From Adineta steineri (Eukaryota), in the NCBI GenBank assembly GCA_905250115.1, contig CAJNOI010000116.1, forward strand, positions 158,664 through 177,027: 18,364 nucleotides of DNA. The letters are read 5' to 3'. Below, piece by piece: positions 49 through 1,446 of the stretch (the stretch's first letter is position 1; every line of letters begins with the position of its first letter). The position numbers and the translations under genes are program-made. The notes beneath the pieces were generated by a model. It ran no database searches. It was given only the letters and a program-made list of their open reading frames with translations, and had not been told where the DNA came from.

Positions 49-1446
49 TCAAGTGCGTGGTTGTTGATGACGAATATTGGCTTGAGCATTTCCATTTACA
101 GTTGGTGGTAATACATTCTGATTAATATTAATTGTATTGTTTCCAGTTGTACATCCAGCTAATCGATAAATAATCTTAATAAATTTAATAAATTCATCAC
201 GAAATAATTTTGATGTCAAACAATGAACATAGAAGTTGATCTATATACAACATATATAAAAGTATTGATATCACATTATATATATACATTTAAGGAATTA
301 TTTTCAGCATTAATCTTTCATTAGTCTTAATTATTATTGAAAAATATGGAAATCTATTTTTCTAGACTATTCTCTTCTGCTACTTATTGAATAATTAAAA
401 CAAAACAATAGAATTCGATACTCATTAAAAAGAAACTTATTAAAATAATTCTTTAATGACTTACGGCATAGTTAAAGCTGAGTAATACAGTGAGTATAGC
501 TGTTTCATTGACAATTTCATTTTCATCAATTGTTGTATTAGCAAAAATTGCATAGGCAGCTACAATTTGACGAATACTAACAGGTAATGTTGTGATAAAG
601 AATATCATGATACTTGATATCATCAAAATCAACATTTGTCGATGTAAACGTGCTTGACGTAACTGCTGTGTCTGATTCATTCCAACTGTTTGAATACGAG
701 ATTTTGTTTTTTGTATAGTTCGATGAATGTCAATACTGCCAAGAAGCATCAATGTTGCAGGAATTAGACAAACAAAGAATACCTTATAGACAAAAATAAA
801 AAGAATATCTTTCATATATGAAATCGTCTGAGTCTCTTACTTGAATGAAAGGCCACTGAACAAAAAAAAATAATGTATATGGAGTCCAAAGCTGTACAGG
901 TCCACATGCTACTGTTGCAATACCAGGGAAAAATTTACCAAAGAATTCAGCACTCAACATATGACTATGTAGACTAATTCCAACAATTATAATGCATATT
1001 GTAACAATGATGACATTCTTATGTGTACACCATTTATTAGCTTTAAATGGTAAACGTGTTCTAAGCCACCGATCAATTGTGACAAACACAAGAATCCAAG
1101 CTGAACAGAATTGAGTCAAGCCCTTCAAGAACCAACGAAATCGACATAAACTATCGTAGTTTGTTAATAGAATTGGTTCTTGTGTCAAACCAACTTCAAT
1201 AAAGTCAAAAATTGACACAAGTAGAAATAAACTATCGGAGACAGCCAAAATGAGAAAAAGAAAGGCAGTAGAAGTGGCACGTAATGTTATTTGCATAAAT
1301 GTTGCCATACTTGCTAGGTTACCTGTGAATCCACATAGGAATATAAATCCTAATCCATAACGATACAAAAGAACAACAACCGGAGAATTCGAAGGACCAG
1401 TATATACAGATGCATCATAAATAACACTAATATTTGTTGTGTTCAT
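49..1446 (-). CDS. Rhodopsin-like (class A) orphan GPCR, tandem copy 1. Three exons: 841..1446, 465..782, 49..240; product ~371 aa.
   Basis: Seven hydrophobic segments are present, with these class-A landmarks:
- GN in TM1 (FTGNLAS)
- LAVSD in TM2
- Cys in ECL1 and ECL2
- DRW at the end of TM3
- W in TM4 (KWC)
- P in TM5 (WPF) and in TM6 (FFITTLPV)
- N-glycosylation sites in the N-terminus (NTTNIS)

ORFs 784..1446 and 453..815 are joined by a 58-nt intron (783..840; donor CAA|GTAAGA, acceptor ctataag|GTA) that restores a continuous TM5.

Exon 2 ends at a perfect donor GCC|GTAAGT (465), directly after ...SFNYA. A 224-nt intron ends at tatatag|ATC (241). Exon 3 reads INFYVHCLTSKLFRDEFIKFIK..., i.e. 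the end of TM7 plus a helix-8 F-R-x-x-F motif, and runs to a TGA at 49-51.

The same structure occurs in all three copies. Confidence 0.8.

Follow-up and report, generated by a model that had tools for sequence, protein, structure and literature searches.

Three tandem receptor genes on the minus strand

We analysed a window of 18,364 nucleotides from the bdelloid rotifer Adineta steineri (contig CAJNOI010000116.1), which has a base composition of 28% GC and short GT-AG introns. Its minus strand carries three tandem paralogous GPCR genes, each formed of exons of 606, 318 and 192 nt and each giving a spliced product of 371 aa (Table 1). Both introns follow the pattern GTAAG...YAG in phase 0 in all three copies, and self-BLAST matched region 1-1684 to 3115-4801 at 91% and to 6676-8298 at 83.5%. 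Intron 1 is identical at 58/58 positions between copies 1 and 2 (783-840 vs 3894-3951), whereas the flanking exons differ by 4-6%, which may reflect local gene conversion or, given how short the intron is, chance.

Table 1. Positions of receptor gene features in the window, and of the last exon at the loci of three mis-modelled relatives
Feature	Position	Strand	Details
Copy 1, exon 1 (606 nt)	1446-841	-	ATG at 1446-1444; N-terminus with N-glycosylation sequons, TM1 to TM4, ECL2, start of TM5
Copy 1, intron 1 (58 nt)	783..840	-	GTAAGA...ATAAG, phase 0; position kept in Rotaria sordida and Adineta vaga
Copy 1, exon 2 (318 nt)	782-465	-	TM5 from V203, ICL3, TM6 (TTLP vs CWxP), ECL3, most of TM7 to A308
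Copy 1, intron 2 (224 nt)	241..464	-	GTAAGT...TATAG, phase 0; stops in every frame
Copy 1, exon 3 (192 nt including stop at 51-49)	240-49	-	Residues 309-371
Copy 1 exon 3, I309 then N7.49-F-Y-V-H7.53	237-223	-
Copy 1 exon 3, helix 8	~210-160	-	F8.50 at 204-202, then variable C-tail
Copy 1, DRW triplet	1074-1066	-
Copy 2 gene, 371 aa	3163..4557	-	Exons 4557-3952, 3893-3576, 3354-3163; introns of 58 and 221 nt
Copy 2, intron 2 (221 nt)	3355-3575	-	GTAAGT...TATAG
Copy 3 gene, 371 aa	6724..8092	-	Exons 8092-7487, 7430-7113, 6915-6724; introns of 56 and 197 nt
Copy 3, intron 2 (197 nt)	6916-7112	-	GTAAGT...TATAG
Tandem duplication array, including intergenic DNA	1..9702	.	Units of ~3.1-3.5 kb; self-BLAST
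Last exon of mis-modelled relatives	L004 4090-4281; L005 4115-4297; L006 4111-4302

Exon 2 of copy 1 ends ...AGC TTT AAC TAT GCC at 465 and is followed directly by GTAAGT at 464-459. An initial annotation of this DNA had placed a GTAAGT donor after ...SFNYA and joined it to a further exon through junctions 465/240, 3576/3354 and 7113/6915, and when we re-read the minus strand the donor, these junctions and all of the strings quoted were exact. Its statement that the open reading frame stops two codons after the donor is right for copy 2, where read-through gives V-S-H-G-stop, but not for copies 1 and 3, where V-S-H-stop places the stop one codon after it. After splicing, exon 3 reads INFYVHCLTSKLFRDEFIKFIK... 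and is 192 nt long including the stop in 3/3 copies. The proposal of a conserved 192-nt exon lying 197-224 nt downstream therefore stands in all three, as the spliced products equal public models and conservation follows the exon bounds.

Adjoining the receptor array on the plus strand are major vault protein (MVP) exons (10498-12408; Pfam Vault, Vault_2, Vault_3, Vault_4). The same neighbour is found at a syntenic A. steineri locus (L007, 6361-20268; GCA_905250045.1, CAJNOG010000129.1), where four tandem 371-aa receptor genes adjoin the MVP gene. As the window starts 48 nt past the copy 1 stop and shows three copies against the four of this second locus, the array may extend leftwards past position 1. 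In an AT-rich stretch downstream of the last vault-repeat ORF there is a short G-rich imperfect minisatellite (12447-12515, plus strand) of (A/G)TGGGTGC(A/G)(G/A)AT(G/A)T-like units, which accounts for the local GC-skew peak. A Kelch-repeat ORF of 345 aa (15244-16281) and, just upstream on the same minus strand, a PAN/Apple-domain ORF (16460-16786) are probably exons of one secreted PAN-Kelch protein. An ORF at 17950-18306 on the plus strand holds three units of ~36 aa ending ...P(N/E)GYV(I/V)T(K/R)(L/V)...NGCG(A/G)...YIE; it had no Pfam match and contains a DNA repeat (18080-18177 vs 18188-18285, 73% identical).

Conservation follows the boundaries of exon 3

The spliced products of copies 1, 2 and 3 are full-length exact matches to the public A. 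steineri models CAF1085209.1, CAF1085229.1 and CAF1085247.1 (UniRef A0A814ULG5, A0A814UJZ8 and A0A814UJ32, respectively), which use the same three exons as the window genes because they are identical to them in sequence. These models are unnamed predictions without function or motif annotation, carrying the UniProt label 'G-protein coupled receptors family 1 profile domain-containing protein'. Exon 3, which the initial annotation had called hidden, is thus present in the GenBank and UniProt models of this same locus, and its concealment was an artefact of applying a prokaryote-style ORF list to a eukaryote.

Across all copies exon 3 is 90-96% identical, and copies 1 and 2 are each 90% identical to copy 3 with zero gaps, whereas over intron 2 the same comparisons give 46-51% identity with 31-62 gap columns; intron 2 of copy 1 is 87% identical to that of copy 2 and 51% identical, with indels, to that of copy 3. 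Within the first 30 codons of exon 3, which encode the end of TM7 and helix 8 (H8), synonymous to non-synonymous changes stand at 3:1, 2:0 and 5:1 in the three copy pairs, while in the tail the ratio is 1:12 in each comparison with copy 3. Likewise, copies 1 and 3 show zero differences over residues 297-337 and 13 over the tail (338-371). A stretch of 63 open codons has a chance of ~0.01 at a per-codon stop frequency of 0.07, and it is seen here three times, in register. Exon 3 evolves under purifying selection and has been conserved between bdelloid genera, and, at the level of sequence comparison, these data confirm it as a real exon in which synonymous changes dominate over the TM7-H8 part. 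Elsewhere in the protein, 11/58 of the copy 1-3 differences fall within the 15 residues of ECL3 (residues 282-296; window 500-545 in copy 1), between TM6 and TM7, and an N-T-T sequon in this loop is found in copies 1 and 2 and is absent from copy 3.

The position of intron 2, between ...NYA and INFY..., is kept in Rotaria sordida (L001, 62 nt) and Adineta vaga (L003, 55 nt) and also in four further A. steineri paralogues at the syntenic locus, and the position of intron 1, between ...IQ and (V/I/A)F..., is likewise kept in R. sordida and A. vaga. In the window array intron 2 spans 197-224 nt, compared with 55-62 nt at the same position in those two homologues. A metagenome contig (L008 1-981; ENA ERZ27296355 k141_220319; protein P0050) encodes TM3 to the C-terminus in a single exon, including ...NYSLNFYLHCLTSKLFRKEF... 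/ ...ANYSLNFYLHCLTSKLFRKEF..., and therefore provides the joined TM7-H8 sequence without any assumption about splicing. As it has a GTAAGT...CAG intron in TM3 this contig is genomic DNA, and we rejected it as RNA evidence and used it as comparative evidence only; P0115 was similarly rejected as a spliced transcript, being a partial genomic model that still contains the intron. The protein of the metagenome contig belongs to an NYSLNFYLHC subgroup, and its gene is without introns 1 and 2 but has the TM3 intron that the window genes lack, so introns have been both gained and lost within the family. Use of the splice sites is supported by this comparative evidence and by gene predictions, which may be computational in origin.

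Among relatives, several public models treat this region differently. The A. ricciae models P0016 and P0019 miss the last exon and continue in another frame, the A. steineri models P0010 and P0011 (349 aa) are spliced to an AG lying 57 nt into the exon, which removes INFYVHCLTSKLFRDEFIK, and the Rotaria sp. Silwood2 model P0014 stops in the intron. In 3/3 loci examined (P0016, P0011 and P0014) an uninterrupted (I/V)NFY(V/I)H... exon of full length follows directly, and the exon 3 frame is also open in the A. steineri paralogues of the syntenic locus. Alternative processing may occur in some paralogues, as the models P0010, P0011 and P0014 suggest, although the complete exon is present at those loci.

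The stop that read-through meets within three or four codons of intron 2, the ATTAAA lying 7 nt into this intron in copies 1 and 3 and the relatives' models that end in the intron (such as P0014) could also be taken to mean that intron 2 is often retained or that the transcript ends inside it, with a main product truncated after ...SFNYA-VSH that contains only six and a half helices and lacks helix 8, and with exon 3 rare or unused. However, the TM7-H8 part of exon 3 is under clear purifying selection while intron 2 decays, each truncated public model that was examined is followed by an intact exon 3, and the intron-less relative encodes the joined sequence. Polyadenylation inside the intron is itself disfavoured, because AATAAA is absent from intron 2 in all three copies and ATTAAA is missing from copy 2. 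We therefore consider a mainly truncated product highly improbable, and retain the three-exon gene as the structure of each copy.

Motif register and class-A fold

We aligned a family profile, built from 16 members down to 32% identity, to solved receptors. The best match was orexin receptor 2 (E = 5e-15), in an alignment that runs through FREEF and sets the segment nFYvhcLtSkLFRkeF against NPIIYNFLSGKFREEF and the longer nyainFYvhcLtSkLFRkeF against NSAANPIIYNFLSGKFREEF. An independent pairwise alignment of a mollusc relative with neuromedin-U receptor 1 gave the same register. Such a class-A comparison over TM7-H8 had been suggested as a check in the initial annotation, and its outcome supports exon 3.

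In copy 1 numbering, N306 is 7.45, N310 is 7.49, F311 is 7.50, Y312 is 7.51, V313 is 7.52 and H314 is 7.53, with F321 at 8.50 and R322 at 8.51 in helix 8. We therefore rejected the earlier equation of N-Y-A-I-N-F-Y with NPxxY, since the N of NYA is 7.45 and the string spans 7.45 to 7.51. The true counterpart is N310-F311-Y312-V313-H314, and although the absence of the proline had been recognised correctly, the motif had been misplaced and the loss of Tyr 7.53 overlooked: Pro and Tyr are both replaced. In the family alignment (n=16), F311, Y312, L316, S318, F321, R322 and F325 are invariant and N310, H314 and C315 are present in at least 90%.

Pfam 7tm_1 (PF00001) matched copy 1 with 49.5 bits and copy 3 with 52.1 bits, against a cut-off of 30.5, the match ending at profile position 249-251 of 260, just ahead of NPxxY. 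An AlphaFold model (mean pLDDT 75.8, pTM 0.74) contained seven long TM helices and H8, with TM7 at 289-317 broken at 309, H8 at 319-335 and a tail disordered from 341. Together with the orexin receptor 2 alignment and the ratio of changes in the tail, this bears out the claim that exon 3 supplies an F-R-x-x-F helix 8 followed by a variable tail. Foldseek gave opioid, somatostatin, neurotensin and chemokine receptors as best matches, with target-normalised TM-scores of ~0.8 to the opioid, somatostatin and neurotensin receptors and a probability of 1.00 to many class-A structures.

The class-A core is retained, with N43 (1.50), D71 (2.50), C101/C181 (C3.25-ECL2), R126 (3.50), P210 (5.50), P269 (6.50), N310 (7.49) and F321 (8.50) all invariant or nearly so in the family. 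At the canonical microswitches D/ERY, CWxP, Y5.58 and NPxxY the receptors instead carry DRW, T-T-L-P, S5.58 (S218) and N-F-Y-V-H, and at position 4.50 the family has C/V/I, without W4.50; the DRW triplet in place of DRY lies where it had been reported. The D/ERY, CWxP, Y5.58 and NPxxY motifs are frequent but non-obligatory features of class A, and both the class-A fold and membership of the superfamily therefore stand. Canonical G-protein signalling is assumed here, because P7.50, Y7.53, Y5.58, W6.48 and W4.50 are missing.

The phase 0 splice between NYA and INFY would connect the first, extracellular two-thirds of TM7 with the cytoplasmic end of the helix, and would add an amphipathic helix 8 (F-R-D-E-F) and a disordered, fast-evolving tail. 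A receptor made without exon 3 would be missing the G protein / arrestin coupling surface.

A bdelloid branch of an NFxxY clade

Using the profile we searched 1.84 billion representative proteins, which returned 147 hits below 1e-30, and inspected the best 150, almost all of which carry N-F. The top ~47 (E <= 1e-40) share the signature N-F-Y-x-(H/Y)-C-L-T-S-x-L-F-R, and those with a named source are all bdelloid (Adineta steineri, A. ricciae, A. vaga, Rotaria species and Didymodactylos carnosus). The following 103 lie further away and are for the most part environmental sequences without a name; those with a named source come from molluscs and an annelid. In these distant representatives 7.50 is F (85/87), 7.53 is Y (77/87), 5.58 is N (71/87), 6.48 is T (65/87) and 3.51 is F, V, L or W (70/93). 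A second search, seeded with a clam 'FMRFamide receptor-like' protein, found NFxxY in 85/89 relatives, and nearly all of the mollusc relatives of this seed have Pfam Srw hits. Among seven distant representatives that were scanned, all had a 7tm_1 hit and six also had Srw.

The missing proline and the DRW triplet had both been put forward as marks of a divergent subfamily, and they fared differently. We rejected F7.50 as a subfamily marker on the counts from both searches; it is near-universal in the Srw-like group, the loss of P7.50 thus being ancient and common to the whole clade. DRW is more specific to the bdelloid branch, with W at 3.51 in 48/50 close homologues. H7.53 occurs in 20/23 close homologues, and among the top 47 representatives 16 have H and 10 have Y. 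The bdelloid Rotaria socialis protein P0074 retains Y7.53. As H7.53 is also found in 8/87 distant, mostly unnamed representatives, it is characteristic of the bdelloid branch but not exclusive to it. Y7.51 is invariant in the bdelloid branch. The window proteins themselves have the F7.50 and T6.48 of the wider clade, but H314 and S218 in place of its Y7.53 and N5.58.

Judged by these motifs, the receptors are a bdelloid-specific expansion nested in a large Srw-like lophotrochozoan clade with the hallmarks NFxxY, T6.48 and no Y5.58, and by the same measure the bdelloid branch shows additional change, having NFYxH (H7.53) and a DRW that is nearly fixed. We hold it very probable that positions 49-465 comprise the second intron and the last coding exon of a class-A (rhodopsin-like) GPCR gene with three exons, which belongs to a tandem set of at least three paralogues and to such a bdelloid-specific expansion nested in a lophotrochozoan NFxxY clade. 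That five canonical microswitch residues are substituted, with loss of NPxxY, DRY, CWxP and Y5.58, might suggest decaying or non-signalling relics that no longer form a working GPCR, but this reading is very improbable, as the substituted positions are fixed and conserved instead of varying at random (across Adineta, Rotaria and Didymodactylos, N-F-Y-x-H-C-L-x-S-x-x-F-R-x-x-F shows little or no variation), the reading frames are all open in eight A. steineri paralogues, N1.50, D2.50, R3.50, P5.50, P6.50, N7.49, F8.50 and the C3.25-ECL2 cysteine pair are retained, and the wider clade with F7.50 and T6.48 is very large.

Possible function and use for annotation

We infer that the window genes encode functional membrane receptors whose diversification would lie chiefly in ECL3, the N-terminus and the tail, and the variability of these three regions, together with tandem amplification, suggests diversified ligand specificity and regulation. 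Judged from the nearest relatives a peptide is the most likely ligand, and a chemosensory role, in the detection of environmental chemical cues, is possible. The strict conservation of N-F-Y-x-H-C argues for functional replacement of the switch residues and not for decay.

A more speculative proposal, to which we give a rather low likelihood, is that the NFYxH/DRW receptors use a rewired switch, in which for instance a polar network built on His replaces the water bridge between Y5.58 and Y7.53, and/or that they form a rotifer-specific, tandemly expanding chemosensory repertoire and are not neuropeptide receptors. In that proposal the bdelloid receptors are those without P7.50, Y7.53, Y5.58 and W6.48, in which Y7.51, H7.53 and C7.54 are invariant.

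Exon 3 and the exact proteins are already public, and the finding is correct but ordinary and describes no new kind of system. In the literature on bdelloid and rotifer GPCR families and on NPxxY variants in FMRFamide receptors we found no description of the bdelloid subfamily or of NFYxH. For annotation, the lesson is that a stop-to-stop ORF list cuts eukaryotic receptors of this type inside TM7, and the conserved junction between NYA and INFY could be used to repair the faulty public models. For comparative GPCR work the value is modest, in documenting a bdelloid branch of the NFxxY clade in which the activation Tyr 7.53 has become His under strong constraint.

Comparison with known receptor families

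One related family is the lophotrochozoan Srw-like expansion of orphan class-A receptors that carries the automatic 'FMRFamide receptor-like' label (e.g. XP_060576924.1 from Ruditapes philippinarum; profile E 1e-30 to 1e-40), which shares with the window receptors F7.50, T6.48, the absence of Y5.58 and W4.50, (E/D)R(aromatic or aliphatic) at 3.49-3.51 and the helix 8 motif F-R-x-E-(L/F). It differs in having Y7.53 (NFxxY) and mostly N5.58, where the window genes have H7.53, Y7.51, S5.58 and DRW. Automatic annotation has named close mollusc relatives inconsistently (FMRFamide receptor-like, GPR139, daf-37-like, LPAR6-like, CCR1-like and others), and 'FMRFamide receptor-like' is therefore a label and not demonstrated orthology. 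The supergroup concept comes from a review of spiralian neuropeptides, and rotifer and bdelloid peptidergic systems have barely been sampled (PMC8557429).

Many homologues of the window genes have hits to the nematode families Srw (PF10324) or Srsx (PF10320), whereas copy 1 hits only 7tm_1. With Srsx, copy 3 scored 28.9 bits against a cut-off of 24.1 and copy 1 had no hit at E <= 1, scores that are weak for Pfam families which, like Srw, were built from nematode sequences. The nematode families and the window receptors are alike in being lineage-specific tandem expansions of divergent class-A receptors, and the resemblance is probably due to common ancestry among peptide-receptor-like class-A receptors and not to membership of Srw or Srsx.

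The best profile and fold matches are vertebrate peptide receptors with solved structures (orexin receptor 2, somatostatin receptor 2, kappa and mu opioid, galanin, kisspeptin and neurotensin). The window receptors have the same TM7-H8 spacing and the helix 8 motif FR(D/E)EF, however, identity is only 15-19% and the vertebrate receptors keep the canonical DRY, CWxP (or CYxP), Y5.58 and NPxxY.
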